Program-made: the position numbers and the translations under genes
From: an uncultured Alphaproteobacteria bacterium
GTDB lineage: Bacteria; Pseudomonadota; Alphaproteobacteria; Micropepsales; Micropepsaceae
Direction: 5' to 3'
Assembly (NCBI GenBank): GCA_963825895.1
Contig: CAWGUP010000002.1
Span: forward strand, 532,564-564,563
DNA: 32,000 nt
In this document: piece after piece, positions 5,341 through 18,020 of the stretch
Numbering within the stretch: position 1 is the first letter of the stretch
Layout: each line of letters begins with the position of its first letter
Notes under the pieces: model-generated
Told to the model about the DNA's origin: nothing
Seen by the model: the letters and a program-made list of their open reading frames with translations, nothing else
Databases searched by the model: none

Positions 5341-5426
5341 TTCCCAACCCGGATTGTTTTGATGTTTGTGTCCGCATTTCGCGCTGGCCGTACCGCAAAA
5401 TCAACCGGATCGTGGTTAAACGCACG

Positions 5427-5458: not shown

Positions 5459-5477
5459 CGAATCGATTTTACTGACA

Positions 5478-5840
5478 CTACTCCCAGTAGTGGGGCGTCT
5501 CATAATAATCGTAAGTCCGCGTTCTCAGATCGCTGTCCGCCCGCGTCACATCTTCCAGCCGCGCAGTAGGGGCTTTTTCGAGTACATCCTTGGACAGCGG
5601 CACGATATAGCCGCCCTTATCGGGATTATAATCGAGCACCGACCACGGAATGGGGTGATATTTCTCACCCATGCCGAGGACGCCGCCGAAGCCGAGCACG
5701 GCAAACATAATATTGTTCGACATCTTATCGAGCACGACATCTTCGACATGGCCGATCTTGTCGCCGGACGTGTTGTAGACCGCGGTTCCCTTCACCTTGG
5801 AAGAAAGTATCGCGCGCGTATGACCGCTTGGTGTGGGCAT
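5478..5840 (-). CDS. PRC-barrel domain protein
   Basis: 120-aa ORF. The sequence SSKVKGTAVYNTSGDKIGHVEDVVLDKMSNNIMFAVLGFGGVLGMGEKYHPIPWSVLDY matches the PRC-barrel pattern (G.xV.xxxGxxIGxVxDvvid...g.v.yaVl.fGGflG.g.k..piPw..l). A GGAAG Shine-Dalgarno sits 7 nt before the ATG. Confidence 0.85.
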   Translation of the reverse strand: MPTPSGHTRAILSSKVKGTAVYNTSGDKIGHVEDVVLDKMSNNIMFAVLGFGGVLGMGEKYHPIPWSVLDYNPDKGGYIVPLSKDVLEKAPTARLEDVTRADSDLRTRTYDYYETPHYWE

Positions 5841-5870
5841 GGTGGAGCTTCCTTGTGGTTACAGGAGCCT

Positions 5871-5895
5871 AACTGCCCAACGCCGCAATTGTTCC
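5871..5895 (-). promoter_or_regulatory. EcfG-type (general stress response) promoter candidate for the PRC-barrel gene
   Basis: The minus strand reads GGAAC-N16-AGTT (GGAAC aattgcggcgttgggc AGTT). It sits 30 nt upstream of the ATG at 5840, inside the 62-bp gap after the ligase stop. The alphaproteobacterial EcfG consensus is GGAAC-N16/17-cGTT. Confidence 0.4.
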
Positions 5896-5902
5896 GATAA
5901 AA

Positions 5903-7525
5903 TCAGACGTTTGCATCTATCCGTTCCAGCATGTGTTCTAACGTCCGCAATTCATCGGCTTCGCGCGCCGGCTTGTCCCAGCGCAACCGATTGATACGTG
6001 GGAACCGCATAGCAACGCCGGATTTGTGCCGCGTGGAACGCTGCAGGCCTTCAAAGGCGATTTCCATGACAAGGCCGAAATCGCGATCAGCCCGAACGGA
6101 ACGAACAGGCCCGAAGCGTTCCGTCGTGTTGTCGCGCACGAATTTGTCGAGTTGCTTGAGTTCATCGTCGGTAAAGCCGAAATAGGCTTTGCCCACCGGC
6201 GTCAACGCATACTTGCCGTCCTCATCTTCGCGCCAAACCCCGAACGTGTAGTCCGAATAAAAACTCGACCGCTTGCCGTGGCCGCGCTGGGCATACATCA
6301 GCACCGCGTCGATCAGGAACGGGTCGCGCTTCCATTTGAACCACGGCCCCTTGGGGCGCCCGGCTTCGTAGATAGAATCCCAGCGTTTCAGCATCACCCC
6401 CTCGGCGGATTGCGGGTCGCCGGCGGGCGGAGCAGCACGCAGCTGACGCAATTCGTCCCAGGTCCCGAACAGCAGCAACGGCGAAAGGTCGATACGGGAC
6501 GAGGCGGCCTTCTCGACAAACAATTCCAAACGCGCACGGCGCTGTTTGAATGGCAGATGGCGGATGTCCTTATCGCCATCGAGCAACAAATCATAGGCGC
6601 GGATGGCGGCGGGATATCGGGACATCAGCTTTGTATCCGCGGTCTTGCGATTGAGCCTTTGCTGCAAATCGCCGAACGGCGCGACCCTGCCCTTGCGCAT
6701 GACCAGGAGTTCCCCGTCGAGCACGCCCTCGAACGTCATCGCCTCCAAGATGTCTGGAAAAGAATGCGAAATGTCGTCGGCGGTGCGCGTGTAGAGACAA
6801 CGCTTGCCGCGCTCGTTCACGGCCTGCACCCGGATGCCATCCCATTTCCATTCAGCGGCGTAATCGGCGGGATCAAGCCGAACCAAATCGCTGTGCTCAT
6901 CGATGGCTTGTGCCAGCATGACCGGGCGGAACCGGCCCGGCGCATCGGGCGAGGGCCTTTCGCTGCGCTTTTCGAGCCACGCAAACAAATCTTCGTAAGG
7001 TGGCGACTGCGCGTGCCAGATTTCCTCCACTTGCGTTATGGGCACGCCGCCCATAGCGGCAGCGGCCTGTTTCGCCAGCCGAGCAGAAACGCCAACGCGC
7101 AAACCACCGGTGACAAGTTTCAAAAGCGCCCAACGTTCATTGGCATCGAGCGCATCAAGCCAGCCCTCCAAAAGCGCCTGGACCTGCGAACGCGATGCCG
7201 TGCGCAGTGCTTCGATTACCTCGGAGAATTCGGGTTTCCGATTGGCGCCGTGCTTCGCCGGCCAGATGAGCGCGACTGTTTCGGCAAGATCCCCGACATA
7301 GTCGTAAGAAAGGCGAAACAGTTGCGGATCATAGCGTGCTTCGACCGCCTTGCGGATGAACGCGGGCTTGGCCTGCGAAAACGACAGCGCGCCGGTCAGC
7401 GCAGCCAGCGCCCAGCCACGTTCGGGATCGGGTGCTTCGCGCAAATAATCGCGTATCAGGACCAGCTTGGCGTTGCGCGAGGGCGTAAACGAAAGTCGAT
7501 CCAGAAGATTTGCAAACGCGCGCAT
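5903..7525 (-). CDS. ATP-dependent DNA ligase of the ligase-associated DNA damage response type (usually annotated 'cisplatin damage response ATP-dependent DNA ligase')
   Basis: 540-aa ORF. Adenylation motif I is present with the catalytic lysine (AEWKWDGIRVQ). The OB-fold-like C-terminus, the length, and translational coupling to the beta-CASP exonuclease upstream are typical of this ligase family. Confidence 0.9.
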   Translation of the reverse strand: MRAFANLLDRLSFTPSRNAKLVLIRDYLREAPDPERGWALAALTGALSFSQAKPAFIRKAVEARYDPQLFRLSYDYVGDLAETVALIWPAKHGANRKPEFSEVIEALRTASRSQVQALLEGWLDALDANERWALLKLVTGGLRVGVSARLAKQAAAAMGGVPITQVEEIWHAQSPPYEDLFAWLEKRSERPSPDAPGRFRPVMLAQAIDEHSDLVRLDPADYAAEWKWDGIRVQAVNERGKRCLYTRTADDISHSFPDILEAMTFEGVLDGELLVMRKGRVAPFGDLQQRLNRKTADTKLMSRYPAAIRAYDLLLDGDKDIRHLPFKQRRARLELFVEKAASSRIDLSPLLLFGTWDELRQLRAAPPAGDPQSAEGVMLKRWDSIYEAGRPKGPWFKWKRDPFLIDAVLMYAQRGHGKRSSFYSDYTFGVWREDEDGKYALTPVGKAYFGFTDDELKQLDKFVRDNTTERFGPVRSVRADRDFGLVMEIAFEGLQRSTRHKSGVAMRFPRINRLRWDKPAREADELRTLEHMLERIDANV

Positions 7526-8535
7526 TAGGCTTCTTCTTCGTCATCATAGCCCACGAGCGAAAGGGCACGCGCGCCAACGCCTTCCAGCTCCGCCCAACGC
7601 AACAGGGCTTGCTCTTCGCCATGGGTGACCCAAAGCTCACAAGGCTGAAGTTGTTTCACCGTCATGGTGAGTTCGTCCCAATCGGCATGATCGGAAATAA
7701 CGAGCGGCAGTTCCACGCCGCGCTGGCGGGCACGCGCCCGCACGCTCATCCAGCCCGAGGCGAAGCCGGACAGCGGATCGGGAAAACGCCGCGCCCAGCG
7801 ATCTGCGATTGCAGACGGCGGCGCGATGATGATCGCGCCCTCGAAATCCTTTTTGCGTCCTGTCGTTGCGGGTGCAAGTGGGCCAAGCTCTATGCCGAAA
7901 GATTCATAGAGCGCGTTCAACCGCTGCATCGCACCATGCACATAGATGGTGCGGTCGTATCCGGCTTCGCGCAACAGACAGATGATGCGCTGGGCCTTGC
8001 CGAGCGCATAGGCGCCTACGAGATGGGCGCGTTGGGGAAACTGCGCCACCGATTTGAGCAGCTTGTGCATTTCGTCGTGGTCGTCGGGATGACGGAACAC
8101 GGGCAGGCCGAATGTCGCTTCCGACACGAATACATCGCAGGCAACAGGGACGAACGACGCGCAGGTGGGGTCGCGGCGACGCTTGTAATCGCCCGAGACG
8201 AGGATCCGGCAATCCTTCCAGTGCACAGCGGCTTGTGCTGATCCCAATATATGCCCCGCCGGGTGCAGCACGATCTCGACCCCGTTGTGCAGGGTAGGGG
8301 CGCCGTAGCTGGCAGCCTGGGTTTCGCCCGCAAAGCCCGTGCCATAACGCGCCTCCATGATGGCAAGAGTTTCGGCCGTCGCCAGCACCGCGCCATGGCC
8401 GGCGCGCGCGTGATCGGAATGGCCATGGGTGATGACGGCGCGCGCCACCGCCCGCACCGGGTCGATGTAGAAGTCTGCGGGCGGGCAATATAGTCCGGCC
8501 GGCGTTGGGCAGAGCAGCGTTTCAGGCTTTATCAT
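7525..8535 (-). CDS. Ligase-associated DNA damage response exonuclease (metallo-beta-lactamase / beta-CASP fold)
   Basis: The MBL motif ITHGHSDHARAGH (HxHxDH) is present. I placed the start at the internal ATG at 8535 (MIKPETLLCPTPAGLYCPPADFYIDP), which is the usual N-terminus of this family, rather than at the track start 8583. The stop TAA at 7525-7527 overlaps the ligase ATG at 7523-7525 (TAATG). Confidence 0.85.
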   Translation of the reverse strand: MIKPETLLCPTPAGLYCPPADFYIDPVRAVARAVITHGHSDHARAGHGAVLATAETLAIMEARYGTGFAGETQAASYGAPTLHNGVEIVLHPAGHILGSAQAAVHWKDCRILVSGDYKRRRDPTCASFVPVACDVFVSEATFGLPVFRHPDDHDEMHKLLKSVAQFPQRAHLVGAYALGKAQRIICLLREAGYDRTIYVHGAMQRLNALYESFGIELGPLAPATTGRKKDFEGAIIIAPPSAIADRWARRFPDPLSGFASGWMSVRARARQRGVELPLVISDHADWDELTMTVKQLQPCELWVTHGEEQALLRWAELEGVGARALSLVGYDDEEEA

Positions 8536-8642
8536 TTTGCCAATATGACCCTTGCCAGAACCTATCCCAAGACAAACGCCCAACGCGCTTGATCGCGGCG
8601 CGGAGCCGCTGCTTACATGGGCCGGGCGGATGGGACAGCTGG

Positions 8643-10508
8643 ATGCAACCGAGCGAAACGACCGAGAAGGAGGGGCCCCCCCGGCCCGCGCTGGTGCTGC
8701 GTTTTGGCATCAGCGGCCACCGCACACTGGGCGAGGAGGCGGGGCTGCGGGTGCACAAAGTGCTGACGGCACTGTTCACCGATGCACGTGACACGCTGGG
8801 GCACCTGCAATCGGGCCATCACCAGACCTTCTGCGGCAACGCTGCCGCCTTGCGGCTGATCTCGCCACTCGCCGAAGGCTCGGATCGACTTGCCGCGCAG
8901 GCAGCCCTCGATTGCGGTTTCGCGCTCGATTGCCCGCTTCCTTTCGCACGTGAACTCTACGAAGCCGATTTCAAGGCCGAGGCTTCGCGCAAGGCGTTCC
9001 ACCAATTGCTTGCCCGCGCGAAGAACGTATTCGAACTCGAGGAAACGCGCGGGGTCGACGACACCCGCGCCTACGAAGCCGTAGGTCTGATGACCTTACG
9101 CCAATGCGACATCCTGATCGCGGTTTGGAATGGGCTGCCCGCCGAAGGTCGCGGCGGCACCGCCGAGATCGTCTCGCACGCCATCGAGTCCAACATTCCG
9201 GTGATCTGGATCCATTCCGACAACAAGGACGCGCCGCCGAAATTGCTGCGTCCAGAGCCGCTTGGCTCGCGCGATCCATTGCAGATGCCGAGCGAAGAAC
9301 TGAGCGCTGAGGTGTTACGCGACTTGTTGTGCACGATGGTGTTGCCGCCGCATGATCCCAGCAAGCGAGTGCACAGGCCGCCCTCGAAGCGGTTGCGCGC
9401 CTATTGGGACGAGCGCCAGACCAAGTTCACTTTCTCCGTCTTCTATGCACTGTTGCAGATGATGCTGTTCGTGCGCTGGCCGCGCTTGGCTGATTTGCGC
9501 GTTCCAAACTATCTGGTGTCGGCCAACACACAATGGCGGACTTATTGGCAATTGCTGCCGCCGATTTCAGGCCCATCGCGCGAAAAGCTCGCCACTGTTT
9601 TGGAACCTGCCTTCGGTTGGGCCGATGGGCTGGCATCCTATTATGTGCGCGTTTATCGCAGCTCCTATGTGCTGAGTTTCGCGCTGGCGGCGGGCGCCGT
9701 ATTCGTGTCGCTGCTGGGTTTGTGGCACGGGGTGGCGCATAAGTGGTTGATAGTGATCGAATTGATCATGATGTGGAGCGTGGTCGTGATCGTATGGAAC
9801 GGCATGACGCGCAGTTGGCATGATCGCTGGATCGACTATCGCCATCTTGCCGAACTCCTGCGTCACATGCGGGTACTGACCTTGACCGGCTCGAGCACGT
9901 TCGAAATCCGCGATACGATACATAGCGAAGAAAGCAGTGGCGATTCGGGCGCGGCCTGGGTGAACTGGTATTATCGCGCCGTGGTGCGCGATATCGGCAT
10001 GGTGGGCGTGCGTGCCGACCCGGCCTATGCCGTCGCTGTGGCCCAACTCGTGCAGAAAACCGAATTGCGCGAACAGGTGCTTTATCATCGCGGCGTCGGC
10101 GAGGTTTCGCAGAAACTCGATCACAGGCTCGATAGGTGGGGCGTCATATTGTTCGGCCTGACTGCGGCTGTGTGCACCGTTTTCACTGGAGGCATATTTT
10201 TCCTCCACTGGAAATTCGAGAACTACGGAACGGCGGAAATCTTCTTTACCGCGCTCCTACCTGCCTTGGGGGCGGCGTTCTACGGCATCCGTGTGCAAGG
10301 TGAATTCGGGCGCATCGCCCAACGCGCAAGGCACATGGACGAACAGCTTTCGCAGGTTTCGGCAGCCCTGCGAAACGATCTGGCAAAGGGTGCGATGACG
10401 CTTTCGCGCGTGTCGTCGCTCACCGAAAGCGCGACCCACGCTATGGCGCTCGACGTCACCGACTGGCGTTTCGTATTCCGCGAAAAGCCACTTACATTGC
10501 CCACCTGA
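8643..10508 (+). CDS. SLOG-like (LOG/DprA-type Rossmannoid) nucleotide-sensor domain fused to two SLATT/DUF4231-like 2TM units; predicted membrane effector
   Basis: The start is set at the ATG at 8643 (MQPSETTEKEG...), clear of the divergent exonuclease gene. The N-terminal domain (about 8691-9215) has three matching elements:
- beta1 plus a Gly loop, LVLRFGISGHR;
- ISPLAEGSDRLAAQAAL, which resembles the DprA/SLOG pattern G.A.G.D..A...AL;
- DILIAVWNGLPAEGRGGTAEIVSHAIESNIPVIWI, which resembles the LOG pattern PGGxGTxEE.
TM pair 1 (about 9660-9803) is followed by WHDRWIDYRHLAELLRH. TM pair 2 (about 10137-10292) is followed by a long helix, GEFGRIAQRARHMDEQLSQV. A 2TM unit followed by a helix is the SLATT pattern. 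The domain call rests on motif recall, not on an HMM search. Confidence 0.65.
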   Translation: MQPSETTEKEGPPRPALVLRFGISGHRTLGEEAGLRVHKVLTALFTDARDTLGHLQSGHHQTFCGNAAALRLISPLAEGSDRLAAQAALDCGFALDCPLPFARELYEADFKAEASRKAFHQLLARAKNVFELEETRGVDDTRAYEAVGLMTLRQCDILIAVWNGLPAEGRGGTAEIVSHAIESNIPVIWIHSDNKDAPPKLLRPEPLGSRDPLQMPSEELSAEVLRDLLCTMVLPPHDPSKRVHRPPSKRLRAYWDERQTKFTFSVFYALLQMMLFVRWPRLADLRVPNYLVSANTQWRTYWQLLPPISGPSREKLATVLEPAFGWADGLASYYVRVYRSSYVLSFALAAGAVFVSLLGLWHGVAHKWLIVIELIMMWSVVVIVWNGMTRSWHDRWIDYRHLAELLRHMRVLTLTGSSTFEIRDTIHSEESSGDSGAAWVNWYYRAVVRDIGMVGVRADPAYAVAVAQLVQKTELREQVLYHRGVGEVSQKLDHRLDRWGVILFGLTAAVCTVFTGGIFFLHWKFENYGTAEIFFTALLPALGAAFYGIRVQGEFGRIAQRARHMDEQLSQVSAALRNDLAKGAMTLSRVSSLTESATHAMALDVTDWRFVFREKPLTLPT

Positions 10509-10510
10509 CC

Positions 10511-12508
10511 ATGCCGATCACGCTTTTCCGCTCCCGGGACTGGTTCGTCATCGCGCCGCTGGCGCTGGCCGGGCTGGTGCTCGGCTTCTGGGGCTTTGAG
10601 ATCTGTGCCGGGCGATGCCTTGTCACCTCGCCGCTGGGCGCCTTCGTCAAAACTGTCGGGCTCATCAAAGCCACAGGCAATTTCACGCTCGGCAAGGACC
10701 CGTGGCAGCTCGTCATCGCGCAATTTCTGTTGCCGCTGTCGGCGCTGGCCGGCGGCATTAAGCTGGTGCTGCAGAATCTACGCCGCGACATGCGCGTGGC
10801 CTTGGCGCGCAGTGCGCGCGGGCATGTGATCGTCTGCGGTCTGGGCGACACCGGTCGGCAGGTCGTCGAAAGCCTGCGCAACGAAGGCGAGCACGCCGTG
10901 GCCATCACGCTCGACAATGACAGCCCGAACGCTCTTGCCTGCGAAGCGCGCGGTGTGGCGATTCTCAAAGGCGATGCCGTACAGCCCAACATGCTGAAAC
11001 TCGCAGGCCTTGCCCACGCCAAAGCGCTGGTGCTCGCCTGCGGCTCGGACGGCACCAACATCGAGATCGGCCTGCGCGCGCGCGAATTCCTCGACAAGCT
11101 GCCAAAGCGCCGCGATCCACTCACGATCCTGCCTGAACTGCGCAACGAATGGCTCTACGACGAAGTGCTCACCCACCGCGCCGCAGCGCTGGGATCGCGC
11201 GTCGCAGAATTCCGCCTGTTCAATCTCAACGCCAACGCCGCGCGGCTACTGCTGCGCGCGCCAGCCTTCCGCGCACGCAGTGCGCCGGCCGATCGGCCGC
11301 ATCTTGCCATTGCCGGATTCGGACAAATGGCGTCCGAGCTTCTGTTGCAGGCCGCGCGCGACAATTTTGCGCTGCCCGGACAGCGGCTTTCGGTGTCGGC
11401 GCTGGACCAGCGCGGCGAGGAAAGCCTTGTCGCGTTCAAAACGCGGTTTCCCGAAATCGCCTCGATGATCGATATTTCCTGTGATGCCTGTTCTTTCGTC
11501 GCAGGAGACGCGAGCGCGTCAGCCGCGGTGGAAAAGTTTCTGGATAACGCCGATCTGCGCGCGGCCATCGTCACTCTGAAAGACGATGATGCGGCACTGC
11601 ACACCGCCATCGCGATGCGAAAGAGCCTGGACCGTAGCGCGCGCTACCGCGTGCCTGTGTTCGTACGGCTGCGCCAGCAACAGAAGCTGGGCGCCTTCAT
11701 GTCGCACATTGAGGGCGATTTGCTTCTGCCTGACCGGTTCTCGCCCTTTGGCAGTCTCGCCGAACTTACCCATCCCGACCGCTTGCTGGGGCAATCGCTT
11801 GATATCCTGGCGCGTGCCGCTCACGACAATTACTTAAAGGACGCACAACCGGGCCAGGCGTCCTCGGTGCCGTGGGAATTGTTGCCGGAGCGGTTCAAGC
11901 AATCCAATCGCGCCTTCACCGATCACATCCAAACCAAGCTCAATGCGCTCGGAATGCGGTTGATCGCGCTGCGCGGCCAACGCATCGCGTTCAGCGATTG
12001 GGAAATCGAAATGTTGGCGCAAATGGAACATTACCGCTGGTGCGTGGCGCAGCGTTCGGCGGGCTGGCGCTATGGGACAGTGCGCAACGACTATTTAAGA
12101 CAGCACCCGCTGCTGGTGGACTGGGCGGCTCTGCCGCAATCGGTCTGCCAGGCCAATCGCGAGATGGTGCGCGGCATTCCGGCCATCGTAGAAATGGCGG
12201 GCCAATCCATCCGCCGCGACCAAGTGTTGGTGGCGAACCCCGATACGCTGGCTGCCCTGGACGCGCTTTTGCCCAGCGAACATGCCGTCATCTTGGTGGA
12301 TGAGACGGATGCCGCCTCATGGGAGATCGCGCGCCAGGCCCATGAACGCTACGGCGCCACTATCCGCCTCGTCTGGCAGGAAGGCCGCCCGCCTCCCGCG
12401 ATCCCCGCCGGAGGCGCCAACATGGCGGGCGCAGTGGAAGGTTGGATCGACGCTGCGGAGCTGGCGTGTCACGAAAGCTCGCTTGCTCAAAGCAGCCGCC
12501 ACTTTTAA
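10511..12508 (+). CDS. Membrane protein: N-terminal 2TM module, TrkA_N/RCK-type NAD-binding Rossmann domain(s), and a RyR (ryanodine receptor repeat) domain
   Basis: 665-aa ORF. Its ATG lies 2 nt after the stop of the preceding gene.
- TM1 spans aa 11-33 and TM2 spans aa 66-88.
- The Rossmann motif GHVIVCGLGDTGRQVVESL ... VAILKGDA ... AKALVLAC matches TrkA_N.
- A second Rossmann-like start, HLAIAGFGQMASELL, follows.
- The RyR signature lies at about 11798-12205: LARAAHDNYLK...WELLPERFKQSNRAFTDHIQTKL and EIEMLAQMEHYRWCVAQRSAGWRYGTVRNDYLRQHPLLVDWAALPQSVCQANREMVRGIP. The family pattern is E.lA...H..W......GW.yG..rd...k.hP.lv.w..Lp...k..dr..v..ip. Confidence 0.8.
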   Translation: MPITLFRSRDWFVIAPLALAGLVLGFWGFEICAGRCLVTSPLGAFVKTVGLIKATGNFTLGKDPWQLVIAQFLLPLSALAGGIKLVLQNLRRDMRVALARSARGHVIVCGLGDTGRQVVESLRNEGEHAVAITLDNDSPNALACEARGVAILKGDAVQPNMLKLAGLAHAKALVLACGSDGTNIEIGLRAREFLDKLPKRRDPLTILPELRNEWLYDEVLTHRAAALGSRVAEFRLFNLNANAARLLLRAPAFRARSAPADRPHLAIAGFGQMASELLLQAARDNFALPGQRLSVSALDQRGEESLVAFKTRFPEIASMIDISCDACSFVAGDASASAAVEKFLDNADLRAAIVTLKDDDAALHTAIAMRKSLDRSARYRVPVFVRLRQQQKLGAFMSHIEGDLLLPDRFSPFGSLAELTHPDRLLGQSLDILARAAHDNYLKDAQPGQASSVPWELLPERFKQSNRAFTDHIQTKLNALGMRLIALRGQRIAFSDWEIEMLAQMEHYRWCVAQRSAGWRYGTVRNDYLRQHPLLVDWAALPQSVCQANREMVRGIPAIVEMAGQSIRRDQVLVANPDTLAALDALLPSEHAVILVDETDAASWEIARQAHERYGATIRLVWQEGRPPPAIPAGGANMAGAVEGWIDAAELACHESSLAQSSRHF

Positions 12509-12533
12509 CGTGGTGTCACGGGTTGGGGCACTC

Positions 12534-13745
12534 ATGGCGCACGACGTCTTTATTTCCTATTCGTCGAAAGACAAACCGGCGGCGGACGCGACCTGCGCTG
12601 TGCTGGAATCCAAGGGTATACGCTGCTGGATGGCGCCGCGCGACATCACGCCAGGCGCGGACTGGGGTGAATCCATCGTCGAAGCGATCCACGCATCGCG
12701 GGCGATGGTGCTGGTGTTTTCGTCAAACGCCAATCTCTCGCCGCAGATCAAGCGCGAGGTCGAACGCTCGGTCAACAAGGGTATCCCCGTCATTCCACTG
12801 CGCATCGAAAACGTGATGCCGGCAAAGTCACTGGAATACTTTCTCTCAACGCCGCATTGGCTCGATGCCTTTACCCCACCGCTCGAACATCATTTGAATT
12901 ATCTGGCCGACGTCATCCGCCACATCCTAGATGGCCAGCCCCCGCCCCCTCCACCGGTTCCGGTGCTTTCACCACTCCACGGCATCGACCGACGCGTGCT
13001 GATCGGCGGCGGCGTTGGCGGGCTCGTGGTGGTAGGCGTTCTGGGTTGGCTGCTGTTGGGACCGTCGACACCGCCCAGCTTCGTTGGCAAATGGACTGCG
13101 GAAAAAGTGGATGTCAACGCCGATACACCAAGCCCGTTCGGCATGTTCTCGATCAGTACCTTTTTCCGGGCCGCAGTGCAGGGGCAAAAACTCACCGGCA
13201 GTTTCGAAGTCGGCGATCTGGGTCAATATAAATATGTCGGGGCCGGAGACGATACCGGGACCGTGAAGGCGGATGGGCAGAATCGCATCATCATGACCTC
13301 CGACCTCACCCATGAAGCGACTGTTTTTACCTACATCGCGAGCAGTGCGGCGTCGTTTGGCGCCTATGCCGGCTCCCTGGGCGGCAAACCAACCGATGGA
13401 GCCATCGCGCTCAGTTCGTCTGGCGGCGCCCAATCCATGCTGGTCGGCACATCGACGGGCAACCCGGGCGAGGCGATCGGGCCCCTGGTCGGTCACTGGT
13501 ACACGAACACCCCGGCCAATCCTGCCATCGGCGCAGTGAAGACCTCGCTCGATATTGGCCATGATGGACGCTACCACTATCATTTCGAAATTGCCGAAAA
13601 CGGCATGTGGCAGGCCGCCGATGGAAAATGGACGCGCACGCCCCAAGGTGGCATCCCGACCTCGGGAACTTACAAATTTGACGGACGTGACAGTGTTACT
13701 TCCGCCGCCGCAAACGGCGTCACCGTGTGGAAACGCATCGATTAA
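12534..13745 (+). CDS. TIR-domain protein: cytoplasmic N-terminal TIR, Pro-rich linker, single TM helix, extracytoplasmic C-terminal domain of unknown fold
   Basis: The start is set at the ATG at 12534, 25 nt after the previous stop. The track ORF start at 12282 overlaps the upstream gene.
- TIR_2-type motifs are present: MAHDVFISYSSKDKPAADA..., CWMAPRDITPGADWGESIVEAI..SRAMVLVFSSNANLSPQIKREVERSV.KGIPVIPLR.
- The candidate catalytic Glu lies in IKREVE (codon 12756-12758).
- A PPPPPPPVP linker follows.
- The TM helix is VLIGGGVGGLVVVGVLGWLLLG (about 12996-13059).
- The C-terminal domain is about 225 aa and Gly/Thr/Ser-rich, with GKWT...GTYKF strings. Confidence 0.85.
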   Translation: MAHDVFISYSSKDKPAADATCAVLESKGIRCWMAPRDITPGADWGESIVEAIHASRAMVLVFSSNANLSPQIKREVERSVNKGIPVIPLRIENVMPAKSLEYFLSTPHWLDAFTPPLEHHLNYLADVIRHILDGQPPPPPPVPVLSPLHGIDRRVLIGGGVGGLVVVGVLGWLLLGPSTPPSFVGKWTAEKVDVNADTPSPFGMFSISTFFRAAVQGQKLTGSFEVGDLGQYKYVGAGDDTGTVKADGQNRIIMTSDLTHEATVFTYIASSAASFGAYAGSLGGKPTDGAIALSSSGGAQSMLVGTSTGNPGEAIGPLVGHWYTNTPANPAIGAVKTSLDIGHDGRYHYHFEIAENGMWQAADGKWTRTPQGGIPTSGTYKFDGRDSVTSAAANGVTVWKRID

Positions 13746-13837: not shown

Positions 13838-14881
13838 ATGTCCGTTCGCCCCCGGTTGCTTGCGCTTGAAACTGCTGTTCCGCCTTATGTACTGCACCAA
13901 AAAGACGTCGCCGTCCGTGCTGCCAATCTGTTCCGCGGCCACAAGGACATCGACCGGCTGCTACCCGTATTCGAAAACACCGGAATCGAGAAGCGTTATT
14001 CCTGTGTGCCCATCGACTGGTATGTCGAGCCCCATGGTTGGAAAGATCGTACCCAGCTTTACCTCGAACATGCGCTCGCGCTGTTCGAGAAGATCACCAA
14101 CGACTGTCTGAAAGTAGCCTGCCTCCAGCGCGAAGACATCGGCGCGATCGTCGTGGTGTCCTCCACCGGCATTGCCACGCCGAGTCTCGATGCGTTGCTC
14201 ATGGAACGGATGCAGTTGCGGCGCGATATCGTGCGGCTGCCGATCTTTGGGCTTGGCTGTGCAGGCAGCGTGCTTGGGCTCGCGCGCGCATCAGCGCTTG
14301 CCCGCGCGATGCCGGGCACCAATGTTCTTTTCCTCGTGGTAGAGCTCTGCGCGCTCACTTTCCGCAAGGACGACGTCAGCAAGAGTAACATCGTGGCAAC
14401 CGCCCTGTTCGGCGACGGCGCGGCAGGCGCGATTCTTTCGACCGAGGGCAAAGGGGTGCAAATCGGCGCAACCGGTGAATACACGTGGCCCAATTCGCTC
14501 GACATTATGGGCTGGGAAATCGAGGAGGACGGATTGAAGGCGCGCTTCGCCACCTCCATTCCTTCGCTCGTCGCCAAAGATTTCCGCAGAATCGCCACCA
14601 GCTTTGCGCGCAAGAACGACATCGATCTGACAGACATCGACGCGTTTGCCTGCCATCCCGGCGGCGCGAAGGTGCTCGACGCGTTGGAAGATGCGCTGAC
14701 GCTTGCGCGCGGCGCGCTCGAAGACAGTCGTGCGGTGCTGCGCGACTATGGCAACATGTCGGCGGTAACCGCGATGTTCGTGCTGAAGCGTATCAACGAA
14801 CGCGAGCAGGCCGAGCGTTGCATGATGACAGCGTTGGGACCGGGTTTTTCTTGCGGCTTCGTGATGCTGGAGAGGCGATGA
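13838..14881 (+). CDS. Type III polyketide synthase (chalcone/stilbene synthase superfamily)
   Basis: 347-aa ORF. The active-site Cys context FGLGCAGSVLGL is present. His is present in FACHPGGAKVLDA. The C-terminal GPGFSCGF motif is also present. Length and N-terminus (LLALETAVPPYVLHQKDV) fit bacterial type III PKS. Confidence 0.9.
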   Translation: MSVRPRLLALETAVPPYVLHQKDVAVRAANLFRGHKDIDRLLPVFENTGIEKRYSCVPIDWYVEPHGWKDRTQLYLEHALALFEKITNDCLKVACLQREDIGAIVVVSSTGIATPSLDALLMERMQLRRDIVRLPIFGLGCAGSVLGLARASALARAMPGTNVLFLVVELCALTFRKDDVSKSNIVATALFGDGAAGAILSTEGKGVQIGATGEYTWPNSLDIMGWEIEEDGLKARFATSIPSLVAKDFRRIATSFARKNDIDLTDIDAFACHPGGAKVLDALEDALTLARGALEDSRAVLRDYGNMSAVTAMFVLKRINEREQAERCMMTALGPGFSCGFVMLERR

Positions 14882-15411
14882 GCGCAGCCTACGTTATCAT
14901 TGCGCTTGTCGCGCTTCAGCGACTGGCTGAATTGCCTTATGCCGCGCGCAACACCAAACGCCTACTTGCAAGTGGCGGCATCGAGGCAGGACGCGGCCAC
15001 TACCCGCTCTTCATCGTGTTGCACGCGGGCTGGCTCATCGCCATTATACTGGCGCTGCCGCCTGATCCACCAATCCGTTGGGCCATGCTTGGCGCCTATG
15101 TACTGCTCGAAATCCTGCGGGCCTGGGTTCTTGTGACGTTGGGACCCTATTGGACCACGCGCATCATCACGCTGCCCAATGCCGCGCTGGTCCAAACCGG
15201 ACCCTATCGCTATGTCCGCCACCCGAATTACTGGATCGTGGTTTTTGAGATCGCATTGCTACCGCTGGTGTTCGGCGAGATCGCTGTTGCAGTGGTCTTC
15301 AGCGTTCTGAACGCCGTACTTTTGTTTTGGCGCATTAGGATCGAGAACGCGGCGCTCGCGAACCGGCGGGCCCATCATGCATCGCCGGGCACACTTGTGA
15401 GATCAAGATGA
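14878..15411 (+). CDS. Isoprenylcysteine carboxyl methyltransferase (ICMT)-family membrane methyltransferase
   Basis: The ATG at 14878 overlaps the PKS stop (ATGA). The 177-aa polytopic protein is MSAAYVIIALVALQRLAELPYAARN... and carries the TGPYRYVRHPNYW motif (RHPxY) typical of ICMT/PEMT-type methyltransferases. The track ORF start at 14485 is an out-of-context extension. Confidence 0.85.
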   Translation: MSAAYVIIALVALQRLAELPYAARNTKRLLASGGIEAGRGHYPLFIVLHAGWLIAIILALPPDPPIRWAMLGAYVLLEILRAWVLVTLGPYWTTRIITLPNAALVQTGPYRYVRHPNYWIVVFEIALLPLVFGEIAVAVVFSVLNAVLLFWRIRIENAALANRRAHHASPGTLVRSR

Positions 15412-16463
15412 GCGATCGGAAGAAGGTCATGGCAGCGTTGCGCTATTCAGGACCGCTCCTGTTTCTTGGGTCGATTCCGATCCTGCACGCATGGGCGCCG
15501 GCAGCCCCCTTTGCGACGGTGATTTTGATATTGTCGGCGCTTGTGCTGGCGGAGCGTTTCTCCAAATCGCCCACCAACATGACACCGCAGGTCTCAACCG
15601 GGCATTTGCTTCCCGTTCTCTACATTCCTGCGCAACTGACGGTGACGCTTTGGGCCGCTCATCAGGTGACCGCGCCCGGCACAACGGCGTGGGAAATCGT
15701 AGCTCTTACGATTTCGGTGGGCGCTACGACTGGCATATTCGGCGTGCTGGCAGCCCACGAAATGGTGCACAATCCGTCCCGCACGAAACGTGCGCTGGGC
15801 AGGATCATGCTGAGCGCTATGACTTATCGGCATTTCGCCATTGCTCATGTTTACGGCCATCACCGCTGGGCCGGAACCGATCGCGATGCTTCCACCGCGC
15901 GGCGTGGCGAGAACTTCTATGCATTCTTCCTGCGCACGCTGGTGCAACAGGTCGCGATGGCCTTCGCGTTCGAAAGGCGCCGTTGCGCAAACAAATCCTT
16001 TCCTGTGCTGCGCAACCGCGTTTTGCACGATGGCGTCATCATGGTGGTAATCTATGGGGCGCTCTATGCCTTTTGGGGACCGATGGCTGCGATCTTCCTG
16101 GCACTGGAAAGCTTCGTCGGCATCTTCGTTCTGGAGGTCTTCAACTATGTTGCCCATTACGGGCTGATGCGCCAGCGCGCGCCTGACGGCACACTCGAAC
16201 CGATGACGCATCGCCACGCTTGGAACTCCAGCGCGCCTGCGGCAAATCTCCTGATTTTCAACATGGGCCGCCATAGCGATCACCACGCTCGTGCGGGTGC
16301 GATCTACGAAACGCTCAGATCGCTGGAGGGAGCGCCGGAGCTTCCCGGGAGTTATGCCGGAAGTATCCTAATGGCACTGGTCCCTCCACTGTGGCGCAAG
16401 GTGATGGATGGCGAACTCTCGCGCCTACAAGCACGGCCGCCGCAAATCGCCTATCCTGCTTGA
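15408..16463 (+). CDS. AlkB-like integral-membrane di-iron hydroxylase (alkane 1-monooxygenase / fatty-acid desaturase superfamily)
   Basis: The ATG at 15408 overlaps the preceding stop (ATGA). The His boxes HEMVHN, AHVYGHHRW, NYVAHYGL and GRHSDHHA match the AlkB pattern (HELxH, EHxxGHH, NYxEHYGL, HSDHH). At 351 aa it is somewhat shorter than classical AlkB. Confidence 0.85.
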   Translation: MSDRKKVMAALRYSGPLLFLGSIPILHAWAPAAPFATVILILSALVLAERFSKSPTNMTPQVSTGHLLPVLYIPAQLTVTLWAAHQVTAPGTTAWEIVALTISVGATTGIFGVLAAHEMVHNPSRTKRALGRIMLSAMTYRHFAIAHVYGHHRWAGTDRDASTARRGENFYAFFLRTLVQQVAMAFAFERRRCANKSFPVLRNRVLHDGVIMVVIYGALYAFWGPMAAIFLALESFVGIFVLEVFNYVAHYGLMRQRAPDGTLEPMTHRHAWNSSAPAANLLIFNMGRHSDHHARAGAIYETLRSLEGAPELPGSYAGSILMALVPPLWRKVMDGELSRLQARPPQIAYPA

Positions 16464-16532
16464 AACACTGGAGACGATTCGATCCCGCCCGCATCAACAG
16501 CCAGCCCCTCTTTCACCACTTGGCTCGGCTTT

Positions 16533-18020
16533 GTGGTGATGTGCGTGGGTATGTTCATGGCGATCCTCGACATTCAGGTGGTGGCGAGTTCCCTGCCGAA
16601 CATGGCCGAGGCGCTTAACATTCCCGAAGACAAGCTGAGTTGGATACAAACAAGTTATCTCATCGCGGAGATCATCGCGATCCCACTTACCGGTTTTCTC
16701 ACTCGCGCGCTGGGCGTGCGCTGGTTATACGCAGGCTCTACGCTGGCCTTCACCCTGGCCAGCATTGGCTGCGCGATGAGCAGCGATTTCACCAGCCTTA
16801 TTGTCTTGCGCACGATCCAGGGCTTTTGCGGCGGCGCACTGATTCCCACCGTCTTCACCACGATCTTCGTGGTGTTCGAAGGCAAACGTGAGGCGCTCGC
16901 CACAACCATTGCCGGCAGCTTCGCGATGATCGCGCCGACCTTAGGACCTGCGCTCGGCGGCTGGTTGACCGAAACCTATTCCTGGCATGCAATTTTCCTC
17001 ATCAACGTCGCGCCTGGCCTTGTGGTCGGCGCAACCGTAGCTGCCATCGTGCGGGTCGGAGAGCCCAACTGGAAATTGCTCAAACGCATCGACTACGTCA
17101 CCGTCATCCTTGCCGCGGTCTTTCTGGCCAGTCTCGAACTCGCGCTGAAACAAGGCCCCAAACGGCATTGGGGAGGCGAATACGTCGCTGTTCTACTTGC
17201 AATCTGCGCGGTCTCCGGCATCGCCGCTGTGCAGCAATGCCTTGTGCGCAAAGAGCCCTTCGTCAATCTGCGCCGCTTCCGCGACCGCTCCTTTACCGCC
17301 GGTTGCATCCTGAGTTTTGTGCTGGGCTTAGGTCTTTTCAGCGCCACCTATATGACGCCGATCTTCCTGGGTTTCGTGCGCGGCCATTCCGCGCTCGACA
17401 TCGGCAAGATCATGGTTGTGGCCGGCGCGGCACAATTGCTTGCTGCCCCCGTTGCTGCGTTCCTCGAAACCCGCATCGACGCACGCAAGCTTGCCTTCGT
17501 GGGTTACGCGCTGTTCGCGGCAGGGTTGATCGCCAACGGCTTCCAGACGCCGCGTTGGGACTTCGGGGAATTCTTCTTCCCACAAGTGTTGCGCGGCGTG
17601 GCGATCATGTTCTGTCTTCTGCCGTCCACGCGGCTGGCGCTCGACGGTTGGCCCAAGGATCAGCTTTCGGATGCGAGCGCGCTGTTCAATCTGATGCGCA
17701 ACTTGGGTGGCGCCATCGGTATCGCGCTGGTGGATACGGTGGTCGAACAGCGTACGCCCAGCCATGCCGCCCATCTCGCAACACTGCTTCAGGCGGGCAG
17801 CCGCACGGCTGCCCAATTCGTAGGCCTGCCACTGCGCTATTTCCACGACAAACCGCTTGGTCCAGTGGACGCGTTCACCAAATCCCTCGTCGAGCCTTTG
17901 GTGAAGAAGGCGGGCGCCACGCTATCGTTCAACGAGGCGTGGCTAATGATCGGCGCGCTGTTCGTGCTCGCACTGCTTGCGTTGCCGCTGGCCACGCGCA
18001 TACGCCCGCTGCGCCGCTAG
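16533..18020 (+). CDS. MFS transporter, DHA2 (EmrB/QacA-like, 14-TMS) family; start codon uncertain
   Basis: 495-aa ORF from the GTG at 16533. The sequence MFMAILDIQVVASSLPNMAEAL... matches the typical EmrB-type TM1 motif (FM..LD.tIVnvALP). Multiple hydrophobic segments run throughout. See the finding on the missing canonical start. Confidence 0.85.
   Translation: MVMCVGMFMAILDIQVVASSLPNMAEALNIPEDKLSWIQTSYLIAEIIAIPLTGFLTRALGVRWLYAGSTLAFTLASIGCAMSSDFTSLIVLRTIQGFCGGALIPTVFTTIFVVFEGKREALATTIAGSFAMIAPTLGPALGGWLTETYSWHAIFLINVAPGLVVGATVAAIVRVGEPNWKLLKRIDYVTVILAAVFLASLELALKQGPKRHWGGEYVAVLLAICAVSGIAAVQQCLVRKEPFVNLRRFRDRSFTAGCILSFVLGLGLFSATYMTPIFLGFVRGHSALDIGKIMVVAGAAQLLAAPVAAFLETRIDARKLAFVGYALFAAGLIANGFQTPRWDFGEFFFPQVLRGVAIMFCLLPSTRLALDGWPKDQLSDASALFNLMRNLGGAIGIALVDTVVEQRTPSHAAHLATLLQAGSRTAAQFVGLPLRYFHDKPLGPVDAFTKSLVEPLVKKAGATLSFNEAWLMIGALFVLALLALPLATRIRPLRR

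Follow-up and report, generated by a model that had tools for sequence, protein, structure and literature searches.

The question raised by this locus is whether three adjacent genes for membrane proteins form one nucleotide-signalling system and, if so, what its output might be. In the window, the whole stretch of 32,000 nt that was analysed, the three genes lie on the plus strand (Table 1), with alternative upstream starts at 8505 for gene 1 and 12282 for gene 3 in the ORF list; the product lengths in Table 1 follow the start codons chosen in the preliminary description of this DNA. The stop codon of gene 1 is separated from the start codon of gene 2 by 2 nt (TGAccATG at 10506-10513), and 25 nt lie between the TAA of gene 2 (12506-12508) and the ATG of gene 3 at 12534. 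Public assemblies contain called proteins identical to all three products, and the coordinates first given match these gene calls exactly. The search with gene 1 returned 7151 cluster-level relatives, 1182 of them at E<=1e-30. The three are real genes and not chance open reading frames. Upstream, on the minus strand, lie genes for a DNA ligase (5903-7525) and for an RMMBL exonuclease (7525-8583), so that the operon is indeed divergent from these two genes. The promoter match of Table 1 is only suggestive, since three such sites occur between the divergent genes compared to 1.5 expected. No tRNA was found in the window, and no mobile-element or defence genes were found among the 20 flanking ORFs scanned. 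The system is a chromosomal resident that is inherited vertically; its housekeeping neighbours and conserved synteny fit the suspicion, raised from the sequence, that it is not a mobile island.

Table 1. Features of the three-gene operon and its upstream region, in positions of the window.
Feature	Position	Strand	Basis
Weak sigma-70-like promoter match, divergent intergenic region upstream of gene 1	8506..8535	+	9/12 hexamer matches
Gene 1, 621 aa: cytoplasmic SLOG-fold domain, SLATT 2TM unit, second 2TM helical unit	8643..10508	+	ORF, exact public gene call, AF2 pLDDT 93.6
SLOG-superfamily Rossmannoid domain, residues ~12-200	8676..9242	+	Foldseek, invariant columns
SLATT/DUF4231 unit, residues 325-423; TM1 343-361, TM2 369-387	9615..9911	+	Pfam PF14015, helix prediction
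Second helical 2TM unit, residues 460-613; TM3 496-514, TM4 531-549	10020..10481	+	AF2 helices, TM prediction; no known family
Gene 2, 665 aa: GsuK-like channel-like protein with RyR R12 domain	10511..12508	+	Pfam TrkA_N and RyR, AF2 pLDDT 88.4, Foldseek
2TM module with re-entrant helix: TM1 11-31, helix 41-53, Gly-rich loop 54-64, TM2 65-101	10541..10813	+	AF2, column conservation
Tandem RCK: RCK1/TrkA_N residues 106 to ~250, second Rossmann-like domain 264-420	10826..11770	+	Pfam, AF2, Foldseek
RyR Repeat12-type domain, residues ~429-566	11795..12208	+	Pfam, phmmer, conservation
C-terminal alpha/beta domain, residues 567-664	12209..12505	+	AF2 elements E566-574 through H648-664
Gene 3, 403 aa: single-pass membrane TIR protein	12534..13745	+	ORF, exact public gene call, Pfam TIR_2 E 6.4e-22
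Cytoplasmic TIR domain, residues 1-135	12534..12938	+	Pfam
Transmembrane helix, residues ~155-176	12996..13061	+	Helix prediction; Pro-rich linker and DRR before it, cytoplasmic side
Extracytoplasmic beta-rich domain, ~225 aa	13062..13742	+	Close relatives only

The preliminary description had placed transmembrane helices in all three products, and hydrophobic-helix prediction yielded four, two and one in genes 1, 2 and 3, respectively, which agrees with the secondary structure of the AF2 models; every motif that it quoted was present in the translations. Gene 3 was recovered as the TIR domain, single helix and extracytoplasmic domain that had been read from it. The candidate catalytic Glu of the TIR domain is E75 (codon 12756-12758), which is kept in 48 of the 51 TIR domains neighbouring gene 1 homologues, and the domain shares 61-69% identity with partner TIRs from three other phyla. 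A hydrophobic helix follows the TIR domain in 40 of the 51 partner proteins. The extracytoplasmic domain of gene 3 had no match in Pfam and gave tblastn matches at loci L004-L006 only, and at the same position the partner TIRs of other loci have TPR, BNR propeller, DUF4189 or FGE-sulfatase domains.

Gene 1 had been described as a SLOG-like domain fused to two SLATT-like units, and this architecture was upheld in part. When the N-terminal AF2 model was compared using Foldseek, it matched DprA (3uqz, 4ljk, 5mll), ShosA (8zva), the Moco carrier protein (2iz5) and the LOG-like TM1055 (1rcu), all at probability 1.0; since every one of these proteins is a member of the SLOG superfamily, the domain is, as modelled, a SLOG-superfamily fold. 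Its invariant loops are GxxGHR (22-27), LAEGxD (76-81), D156, W162 and GGT (171-173). The domain had no Pfam match of its own and no significant sequence match to curated SLOG families or ThsA, and homologues of gene 1 gave weak Pfam matches to Nuc_deoxyrib_tr, DprA, YAcAr and YpsA. The first 2TM unit matched DUF4231/SLATT (PF14015; E 2.6e-6, 28.3 bits, cutoff 24.7), while NCBIfam SLATT_1 scored 32.4 bits on gene 1, below its cutoff of 41. The second unit had no Pfam match and no detectable similarity to the first (hhalign probability 0.3%); only the first is recognisable as SLATT.

Gene 2 was confirmed by Pfam, AF2 and Foldseek as a 2TM module followed by TrkA_N/RCK and RyR domains. Pfam assigned TrkA_N to residues 106-196 (E 5.5e-19) and RyR to residues 499-566 (E 9e-11), and found no match in the C-terminal domain; the top Foldseek matches were the GsuK channel (4gx5/4gx0; E 8e-10), TrkA, MthK, BK and RyR3 R12. 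The tandem RCK region is built of alternating beta and alpha elements in the AF2 model and aligned in Foldseek to the double-RCK GsuK and TrkA. Gene 2 resembles GsuK in its 2TM module and tandem RCK but differs in its added RyR R12 domain and in its pore-like loop, from which TVGYG or any other K+ selectivity signature is absent by column conservation, so the 2TM module may be a membrane anchor only. Two cysteines of its outer loop, C32 and C36, are conserved. The RyR domain was related by phmmer to R12 of RyR1/2/3 and to the Bacteroides RyR-like proteins 3nrt and 6uag, and among 47 gene 2 homologues H507 and W510 never vary, while H532 is kept in 35. Phage RyR (PF02026) domains bind 2'/3'cADPR with nanomolar affinity, according to a 2026 preprint (PMC13232231), and one phage RyR-domain protein hydrolyses 2'/3'cADPR via an H75/D117 dyad (PMC13232231); phage RyR-domain proteins are also present in BFVD. 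The ligand-contact residues H-x2-W...H are retained in gene 2, and together with the binding by phage domains they strengthen the earlier suggestion that the RyR/RCK protein may be a second ligand-responsive component. At position 549, gene 2 has Asn, like 34 of the 47 homologues (Asp in 8), where the catalytic Asp of RyDEP, D117, would fall, judging from the spacing of the residues and from how gene 2 aligns to the Bacteroides RyR-like protein.

Linkage was examined in 80 species-level GTDB loci with gene 1 homologues, many of which are Sphingomonadales sharing synteny, so that the counts are not independent. A TIR gene was found within 5 kb at 46 of the 80 loci (58%) and was absent at 34, an adjacent gene 2 homologue was found at 19 (24%), both were found together at 11, and neither at 26, several of these being truncated contigs. 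The full trio is not obligatory. As compared to 5.4 per Mb at 5-10 kb, TIR genes reached 71 per Mb within 5 kb, a 13-fold enrichment, and none occurred in 426 kb of control sequence. At least seven different gene orders and partner architectures were seen, in Pseudomonadota, Acidobacteriota, Dadabacteria and Thermodesulfobacteriota. The presence of gene 2 was independent of the TIR gene (TIR at 11/19 loci with gene 2 and at 35/61 without), so the signal generator may be dispensable or encoded elsewhere, and look-ups centred on gene 2 found a gene 1 family member adjacent in four of four. Co-conservation of the trio did extend beyond close relatives: it is complete in Rhizomicrobium-like MAGs, where the flanks are also the same, and, in different gene orders, in Acidobacteriaceae and a Methylococcales MAG. 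In another genomic context, a 63%-identical gene 1 homologue is directly paired with a TIR protein of 403 aa. The TIR orthologue of Acidobacteriaceae (64% identity) carries, as a fusion, a copy of the gene 2 2TM module, and this copy shares 53-73% identity with the cognate gene 2. Other neighbours of gene 1/gene 2 homologues included nSTAND1 NTPases (L007, L010), patatin (L015, L052, L101) and a caspase/trypsin/WD40/AAA/TIR cluster (L001), and a Kir-like channel lies near the gene 1 homologue of L034.

We propose, with moderate confidence, a membrane-embedded NAD-derived-nucleotide circuit running from the TIR protein through a nucleotide to the SLOG-SLATT and RCK-RyR proteins; of the three, the TIR probably makes the signal and the other two probably sense it. 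Gene 3 would be receptor-like, with a variable periplasmic domain, one transmembrane helix and a cytoplasmic TIR predicted to be catalytically competent. An extracytoplasmic or envelope cue would cause the TIR to oligomerise and convert NAD+ to a signal derived from ADP-ribose, probably an isomer of cADPR. The signal would be bound in the cytoplasmic SLOG pocket of gene 1, and the SLATT-containing 4TM module would change state, which, by analogy with the ThsA SLOG domain and SLATT effectors, may raise membrane permeability or cause an ion leak. RyR R12 of gene 2 could be a second, non-hydrolytic receptor of the same signal, through which gene 2 may gate its own pore-like module or modulate gene 1. 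Counting against this circuit, two operons that pair a TIR with a 'SLOG and 4TM' effector of another family, which has been predicted beside TIRs, failed to protect E. coli (bioRxiv 10.64898/2025.12.03.692087).

Another reading, possible but doubtful, is that the operon is a new Thoeris type acting by abortive infection, with an envelope-sensing TIR, a SLOG-SLATT killing pore, and RCK-RyR as a host-encoded buffer or sponge for the signal that sets the activation threshold and prevents autoimmunity. TIR+SLATT is now known as the anti-phage type VII Thoeris, which uses a cADPR signal (bioRxiv 10.64898/2025.12.03.692087); phage RyR domains are signal sponges, N549 predicts binding without cleavage, and the nSTAND1, patatin and caspase-cluster neighbours are hallmarks of conflict systems, in other lineages. 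However, the window holds only housekeeping genes, without a defence island or mobile element, synteny in Rhizomicrobium-like MAGs and across Sphingomonadales points to vertical inheritance, PADLOC gave no match for genes 1 and 2, and full-length gene 1 was absent from 2.9 million viral contigs. A 2TM/tandem-RCK chassis would also be superfluous for a sponge, and the periplasmic sensor domains on the TIR are unlike the cytoplasmic ThsB of Thoeris.

It is rather improbable that the operon is a housekeeping module for ion homeostasis or envelope stress, in which gene 2 serves as a GsuK-like cation channel regulated by NAD(H)/ADP, gene 1 as a nucleotide-sensing membrane regulator, and the TIR as an optional upstream modulator or mere neighbour. 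The enrichment of TIR genes beside gene 1, which holds in several phyla and gene orders, the conserved catalytic Glu and the Acidobacteriaceae fusion to gene 2's own 2TM module all argue against this, although the link between genes 1 and 2 is tighter than that of either to the TIR, with 8 of 19 gene 2 loci lacking one. The RCK domains of GsuK bind NAD+/ADP (4gx1 and 4gx2 are among the Foldseek matches), and the chromosomal context, vertical inheritance and the Kir-like channel of L034 fit such a role, but the missing K+ filter does not, and patatin, STAND and caspase neighbours would be atypical for such genes. That the order is reversed, with the membrane TIR as an NAD+-depleting effector and SLOG-SLATT and/or RCK-RyR as upstream sensors or co-located membrane partners, is very unlikely: gene 3 does find its best PADLOC match in an effector-type SAVED-TIR (E 1.7e-8), ThsB-type models match it weakly, below their cutoffs, and effectors with TIR NADase activity are frequent in CBASS, Pycsar and pAgo systems, but each of SLOG, SLATT and RyR is documented or predicted to receive signals derived from ADPR, the variable periplasmic TIR domains resemble input modules, and the operon has no signal-generating enzyme besides the TIR.

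For the proposed circuit of one TIR generator and two nucleotide-sensing membrane proteins, our slight preference as to the output is a response to conflict or stress, be it abortive anti-phage defence or an envelope/ion stress response. The proposed circuit is related in logic to Thoeris, in which a TIR generator is joined to a SLOG receiver, the SLOG domain of ThsA being named as the 3'cADPR receptor in the introduction of a recent preprint (bioRxiv 10.64898/2025.12.03.692087). The preliminary description had considered the trio uncharacterised, which no longer applies to the TIR and SLATT pair and still applies to its channel-like partner. Overall, these results support the view that the operon is a candidate relative of Thoeris signalling, with a channel-like RCK-RyR partner that has not previously been described.

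The three genes of the operon, gene 1 (SLOG-SLATT), gene 2 (RCK-RyR) and gene 3 (membrane TIR), are packed on one strand as the preliminary description had proposed, and its start codons are retained in the table below. The junction of gene 1 and gene 2 reads TGAccATG at 10506-10513 (a 2-nt gap), the gene 2 stop codon TAA at 12506-12508 is followed by 25 nt and then by the gene 3 ATG, and public assemblies call exactly these three proteins. Terminator-like hairpins occurred at the background rate only, with none in either intergenic gap of the operon. The divergent orientation relative to the ligase/exonuclease genes was likewise correctly read, and so were the tRNA-free flanks, as no tRNA was found in the window. 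Defence genes were not found beside the operon, and the flanks are housekeeping in character: the 20 further window ORFs scanned were metabolic or DNA-repair genes (DUF885, Cys/Met PLP enzyme, AMP-binding, type III PKS, ICMT, desaturase, MFS, hydrolase, LigD Prim-Pol, Ku, PGI, acyl-CoA dehydrogenases, GNAT and LuxR). The nearest named relatives are Rhizomicrobium sp. MAGs. The ligase and exonuclease genes overlap at stop/start position 7525, and DNA end-joining functions are abundant in the window, with LigD/Ku lying 12 kb away from the ligase/exonuclease pair. The cluster downstream of gene 3 resembles a lipid operon of the alkylresorcinol or pyrone type; both it and the ligase/exonuclease pair also flank the trio, downstream and upstream respectively, in the three closest relatives (L004-L006).

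Genes of the operon and its flanks, with positions in the window
Feature	Position	Strand	Remarks
ATP-dependent DNA ligase (DNA_ligase_A_N/M/C)	5903-7525	-	upstream, divergent from operon
RMMBL metallo-beta-lactamase-fold exonuclease	7525-8583	-	upstream, divergent from operon
Gene 1	8643-10508	+	621 aa
Gene 2	10511-12508	+	665 aa
Gene 3	12534-13745	+	403 aa
Type III polyketide synthase (chalcone-synthase-like), ICMT-family methyltransferase, fatty-acid-desaturase-like protein, MFS transporter	13838-18020	+	
LigD primase-polymerase domain gene and Ku gene	19973-21999	+ (LigD), - (Ku)	convergent

The N-terminal 250 residues of gene 1 had no match in Pfam, and no curated SLOG family HMM in Pfam gave a significant match to either the window protein or 31 of its homologues; none of the SLOG families LSDAT, TPALS, STALD and LD_cluster matched the domain at E<=1. 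Weak Pfam matches among the 31 homologues were to Nuc_deoxyrib_tr (seven, best E 0.014), DprA (three), YAcAr (two) and YpsA (one), and a PDB profile search with the domain returned E values of 0.07-1 only, 0.07 being the best. An AF2 model built from 87 homologues (pLDDT 93.6, pTM 0.92) was then compared by Foldseek, and the N-terminal domain matched DprA (3uqz, 4ljk, 5mll), ShosA (8zva), Moco carrier protein (2iz5, 2iz7) and the LOG-like TM1055 (1rcu) with a probability of 1.0, at target-normalised TM-scores of 0.41-0.55. By its modelled fold, the domain is a SLOG-superfamily Rossmannoid that lies outside every curated SLOG family. The SLOG-like domain of the preliminary description was thus borne out by the model and the Foldseek matches, while the Pfam match expected for it was not obtained, and the suggested structural comparison with TRPM2 gave low Foldseek probabilities only (0.13-0.30 for TRPM2 and TRPM5). 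Residues G22, G25, R27, G79, D81, G171 and G172 are invariant among the 87 homologues (A77, D156 and W162 are also counted as invariant) and T173 is kept in at least 90% of them. These invariant residues map to loops lining the SLOG nucleotide pocket, and both the Gly-rich loop that follows strand 1 and the GGxGT-like loop are present. Since the position of the LOG catalytic Glu (GGTAE) varies among the homologues, ligand binding would be favoured over catalysis.

The membrane portion of gene 1 had been described as two SLATT-like 2TM units, of which the first held and the second did not. The DUF4231 family of Pfam, a member of the SLATT clan, matched residues 325-423 above its gathering cutoff (28.3 bits; cutoff 24.7), and NCBIfam SLATT_1 scored 32.4 bits on the matching stretch, which is under its cutoff of 41. 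Two TM hairpins were predicted (343-361 with 369-387, and 496-514 with 531-549), with positive charges on the cytoplasmic side, and the AF2 model has helices at 367-390 and 392-415, in keeping with a SLATT hairpin that cytoplasmic helices follow. Residues 455-621 had no HMM match in Pfam or NCBIfam, and an internal SLATT duplication was rejected, as hhalign of unit 1 against unit 2 gave a probability of 0.3%. Judged by sequence, only the first 2TM unit can be called SLATT. The gene 1 family is large, with 7151 clusters at 50% identity at E<=1e-3 and 1182 at E<=1e-30.

Gene 2 conformed to its earlier reading as a 2TM module followed by TrkA_N/RCK and RyR domains, with Pfam matches to TrkA_N at 106-196 (E 5.5e-19) and to RyR at 499-566 (42.3 bits, cutoff 27.4). 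In the AF2 model (pLDDT 88.4), TM1 (11-31) is followed by a re-entrant helix (41-53), a Gly-rich loop, TM2 (65-101), two Rossmann-type RCK domains, the helical RyR domain and a C-terminal alpha/beta domain. The best Foldseek matches were GsuK (E 8e-10, full-length chains included), TrkA, MthK, BK and human RyR3 Repeat12 (R12), and the matches in the viral structure library were a K+-channel protein of a phage and many phage proteins that carry RyR domains. Gene 2 therefore resembles GsuK, MthK and TrkA in having a 2TM module with a re-entrant helix ahead of cytoplasmic tandem RCK domains, but differs from GsuK and MthK in lacking a TVGYG-type filter and in carrying the added R12 and C-terminal alpha/beta domains. 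GsuK binds NAD+ and ADP. The pore-like loop of gene 2 has no TVGYG or GYG motif, its consensus being [GA]xGx[YF], and Pfam Ion_trans_2 did not match; with both the selectivity filter and Ion_trans_2 missing, a canonical K+ channel was ruled out. In the predicted periplasmic loop, C32 and C36 (window 10604-10618) are kept in 43/47 and 39/47 homologues, respectively, and could pair as a disulfide or belong to a metal or redox site.

A phmmer search with the RyR domain of gene 2 retrieved the R12 domains of RyR1/2/3 as well as 3nrt/6uag. In an alignment of 47 homologues, H507 and W510 are present in all 47 and H532 in 35, and position 549 is Asn in 34, as in the window protein (N549), and Asp in eight. 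It was recently reported that phage-encoded proteins with the RyR domain (PF02026) have nanomolar affinity for 2'/3'cADPR, that the phage protein RyDEP hydrolyses the signal via an H75/D117 dyad, that its ligand contacts are common to animal RyR R12, and that R12 is explicitly proposed as a candidate site for cADPR-type molecules on ryanodine receptors (Lopez Rivera et al. 2026, PMC13232231). The spacing of H507, W510, H532 and N549 (+3, +25 and +42) equals that of RyDEP H75, W78, H100 and D117, an equivalence that rests on this spacing and on alignment to the Bacteroides and RyR3 domains; N549 aligns with the Asp of a Bacteroides RyR-like protein and with the Asn of human RyR3 R12. Since N549 replaces the catalytic Asp, the domain would bind without cleaving: it is predicted to be a binder and not a hydrolase, and a RyDEP-type glycosidase is disfavoured. 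The likeness to RyDEP and animal R12 lies in the PF02026 fold with H-x2-W and the His at +25 kept, from which ligand binding is a prediction; RyDEP, however, is small, soluble and phage-encoded, whereas the RyR domain of gene 2 is host-encoded and sits in a 665-aa membrane protein. Host-encoded RCK-RyR proteins and TIR operons are not mentioned in PMC13232231, and our literature search returned no other paper that ties RyR domains to Thoeris.

Gene 3 matched TIR_2 in Pfam at residues 5-113 (E 6e-22), and its E75 occupies the catalytic-Glu position of the S-x5-E motif; this Glu is present in 48/51 TIR domains neighbouring gene 1 homologues (partner TIRs). A Pro-rich linker follows the TIR domain and leads to one TM helix (about 155-176) with DRR N-terminal to it, and then to a beta-rich domain of ~225 aa, which Pfam did not match and whose relatives are confined to the closest MAGs. 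The description of a TIR tethered by a single helix to an outer domain agrees with these results, and the C-terminal domain is predicted to lie in the periplasm, as the TIR must have access to NAD+ in the cytoplasm. The TIR of gene 3 (window 12534-12938) is 50-69% identical to TIRs of L004-L006, L009, L014, L025, L032, L037, L040 and L050, loci from Alphaproteobacteria, Acidobacteriota, Dadabacteria, Thermodesulfobacteriota and Methylococcales in which gene 1, next to the TIR, shows only 33-36% identity. Compared with gene 1, this type of TIR is either far more constrained or recently exchanged.

The trio recurs between the ligase/exonuclease and PKS operons in Rhizomicrobium-like MAGs whose gene 1 is 66-69% identical to that of the window, but since this reflects vertical inheritance, it is not independent evidence. 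In another context, a gene 1 homologue of 63% identity lacks gene 2 and has the gene for a 403-aa TIR protein directly after it. In a survey based on one genome per GTDB species, gene 1 had relatives in at least 547 species; 80 loci with a gene 1 29-37% identical were kept, and TIR and gene 2 homologues were counted by running profiles on six-frame translations of these loci. A TIR domain lay within 5 kb of the gene 1 homologue in 46/80 loci, a full-length gene 2 homologue adjoined it in 19 (in two more, a RyR-only ORF lay directly upstream), both TIR and gene 2 were near it in 11, and neither was found in 26, several of which are on truncated contigs. The neighbourhood of the trio recurs beyond its close relatives. 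The density of TIR domains was 71 per Mb within 5 kb of gene 1 versus 5.4 per Mb at 5-10 kb, and it was 0 in 426 kb of unrelated control loci. These counts overstate independence, because ~30 of the loci are Sphingomonadales with shared synteny.

At least seven distinct gene arrangements were present among the loci: gene 1-gene 2-TIR, the order of the window (Rhizomicrobium-like); gene 1-gene 2 and then one or two opposite-strand TIR genes (Acidobacteriaceae); gene 1-TIR-gene 2 (Methylococcales); two gene 1 paralogues followed by TIR-DUF4189 (Dadabacteria and Thermodesulfobacteriota); TIR-TM-TPR, a small ORF and gene 1 (Sphingomonadales); gene 1 followed by TIR-FGE-sulfatase (Marinicaulis); and a TIR-PNP fusion followed by gene 1 (Thermoanaerobaculia). 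In a Dadabacteria MAG (L009, 1860-6923) the tandem gene 1 paralogues are 617 and 594 aa long and precede a TIR-TM-DUF4189x2 protein, and a Thermodesulfobacteriota MAG (L014) has a nearly identical arrangement. The small Sphingomonadales ORF encodes 150-190 aa without a Pfam match (L053 9519-9977, L084 9377-9946 and others); at L053 it overlaps the start of gene 1 by 4 nt, it has no counterpart in the window, and it may be a further system component there. After the TIR genes of most Acidobacteriaceae loci lies a gene for a conserved protein of ~1300 aa, which Pfam did not match and whose N-terminus is signal-peptide-like (cluster c4; L012, 15380-19288).

When the look-ups were centred on gene 2, a member of the gene 1 family adjoined it in 4/4 cases, which represent three distinct contexts (33-44% identity), including that of Methylobacterium haplocladii; a patatin gene lay beside gene 2 in 2/4, and no TIR was found within 7 kb in any of the four. 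Together with the survey, these look-ups indicate that the link of gene 1 to gene 2 is tight and that the link to TIR is frequent but not obligatory. In the M. haplocladii isolate (L101/L102, 4787-10214) the gene 1 homologue is divergent from the gene 2 homologue, with an overlap of 10 nt between the gene 2 stop and a patatin phospholipase gene, after which comes a gene for a 1213-aa WD40 protein; this species could be a tractable organism for genetics. Neighbours at TIR-less loci included nSTAND1 NTPases, patatin and a Kir-like channel, and L001, with its TIR gene ~7 kb from gene 1, has a caspase/trypsin/WD40/AAA/TIR cluster. A TM helix follows the TIR domain in 40/51 partner TIR proteins. 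Two loci of Acidobacteriaceae (at L032, 4187-5128) encode a TIR with 64% identity to gene 3 that is joined in one protein with a copy of the gene 2 2TM module; this copy shares 53-73% identity with the cognate gene 2, and the fusion speaks for contact between the TIR and the RCK-RyR protein within the membrane. These observations establish the domain identities, topology, residue conservation and recurrent linkage of the trio. Direct fusion of TIR to gene 1 was not found among eight long family members, and carriage of gene 1 by phages or prophages was rejected, as only stand-alone SLOG-like fragments and no full-length gene 1 were found in IMG/VR. The 29 viral contigs concerned (L105-L133) match gene 1 residues ~70-190, the SLOG core, at 20-34% identity; these could be phage DprA-like or SLOG proteins, or possibly signal sponges.

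The Thoeris-like character suggested in the preliminary description has no counterpart in the curated models. No Thoeris model scored above threshold for the operon, PADLOC has no model matching gene 1 or gene 2, its ThsB-type models gave E values of 0.0035-0.05 for gene 3, and the Pfam ThsB_TIR (19.3 bits, under 21.2) and NCBIfam Thoeris type III ThcB4 models (11 bits, cutoff 220) stayed below their thresholds. The pairing itself is of the Thoeris type, in that a TIR with the catalytic Glu adjoins a SLOG-bearing membrane protein in one operon. Twenty-nine putative Thoeris types have been catalogued, among them type I with a SLOG receptor and type VII, in which a ThsB TIR is paired with the SLATT effector ThsH and the signal is canonical cADPR; two operons with a predicted 'SLOG and 4TM' effector were tested in E. 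coli and gave no defence (Yirmiya et al., bioRxiv 10.64898/2025.12.03.692087). The operon resembles type I ThsA (SIR2-SLOG)/ThsB in combining a putative TIR generator with a putative SLOG receptor on the effector; the output of ThsA is a SIR2 NADase, whereas gene 1 carries a SLATT membrane module, and gene 1 has no detectable sequence similarity to ThsA. It resembles type VII in that a TIR gene adjoins a SLATT membrane protein, with a proposed TIR-made, ADPR-derived signal acting on a membrane-breaching effector. However, ThsH is SLATT only as described (the comparison being by description), whereas gene 1, at ~620 aa, also has a SLOG domain and a further 2TM unit; the TIR protein of the operon sits in the membrane and has a predicted periplasmic domain, the third gene encodes an RCK-RyR protein, and there is no defence island. 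Two type VII TIR sequences scored only 14-20 bits against the partner-TIR profile. The 'SLOG and 4TM' or '4TM SLOG' effectors (Tables S1 and S2 of Yirmiya et al.) are alike in placing a TIR beside a SLOG domain fused to four TM helices. At one such locus (L088) the SLOG-4TM ORF (3829-5028, about 340-400 aa) precedes a soluble double-TIR protein (5035-6426), and gene 1 was rejected as a member of this group, since tblastn gave no match in L088 or in the comparison loci L087 and L089-L100. With the Nitrospira TIR from the same tables as query, the Nitrospira locus was not retrieved, and the one neighbourhood found was uninformative. TIR-SLATT neighbourhoods in phages have also been described, with SLATT predicted as an effector regulated by an ADPr derivative (Iyer et al. 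2022, PMC9503650).

Between gene 1 and TRPM2 the analogy is one of function, in that a nucleotide sensor of SLOG type is joined to a putative conductance module in the membrane, whereas the membrane domains are non-homologous. TRPM2 is an ADPR-gated cation channel with a SLOG-like MHR1/2 domain. Burroughs et al. reportedly predicted in 2015 nucleotide-centric conflict systems of SLOG, SLATT and TPALS, with SLATT as the 2TM partner of SMODS and SLOG, and SLOG families are said there to associate with TIR and PNP. A fusion of TIR_2 to PNP_UDP_1 (nucleoside phosphorylase) lies upstream of the gene 1 homologue in a Thermoanaerobaculia MAG (L072, 4035-6422), and this echoes the TIR/PNP-SLOG associations of those predictions. 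To our knowledge, an RCK-RyR partner was not part of them.

The best-supported reading, to which we give about an even chance, is a core membrane-embedded TIR-nucleotide circuit, whose chemistry, binding and output we infer as follows. Gene 3 would act as a receptor-like signal generator, gene 1 as a SLOG-gated SLATT effector, and gene 2 as a second receptor whose RyR domain may bind without cleavage (N549), on a GsuK-like chassis. A strict anti-phage system with gene 2 as a buffer is the strongest rival, although we consider it unlikely: the domain repertoire and several distant neighbourhoods are conflict-like, some distant loci having STAND, patatin or caspase neighbours, and the operon itself is not a typical defence island because it is chromosomal and vertically inherited. 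Rather improbable, in our estimate, is a resident second-messenger pathway in which an extracytoplasmic cue acts through the TM TIR to yield a cADPR-type nucleotide that gates the RCK/RyR channel directly, with a SLOG-SLATT conductance beside it. The cADPR-ryanodine receptor axis of animals would then have a parallel in prokaryotes, from which it may even have evolved, and R12 would be the nucleotide sensor. A homeostasis module in which the TIR is optional would accommodate the gene 2 look-ups, and the concentration of TIR domains close to gene 1 weighs on the other side, so that we find it more doubtful still. A reversed pathway order with the TIR as effector we regard as very improbable.

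In the membrane-embedded TIR-nucleotide circuit, the sensing of a TIR product by SLOG or SLATT is known logic; what is new is the ~620-aa SLOG-SLATT family, the receptor-like membrane TIRs and, above all, the host-encoded, channel-like RCK-RyR partner. The weight of the finding is tempered by the non-obligatory linkage, and the function of the circuit is one that we infer; should the model fail, the operon would still be a well-delimited, widely conserved trio of membrane proteins without an assigned function. If the model is true, bacterial TIR-nucleotide signalling would reach past mobile defence islands to vertically inherited membrane circuits with receptor-like TIRs, and a large family, whose full-length relatives make up at least 1182 clusters at 50% identity, would consist of SLOG-SLATT effectors. 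Gene 2 would then provide the first RyR R12 domain of a cell rather than a virus that sits on a channel-like chassis and is placed, in genetic terms, downstream of a TIR. A direct action of cADPR-type molecules on ryanodine receptors has long been debated. The RCK-RyR partner would give a bacterial parallel to this debated cADPR-RyR axis, and a three-gene bacterial system would open TIR-to-RyR coupling to simple genetics and biochemistry.
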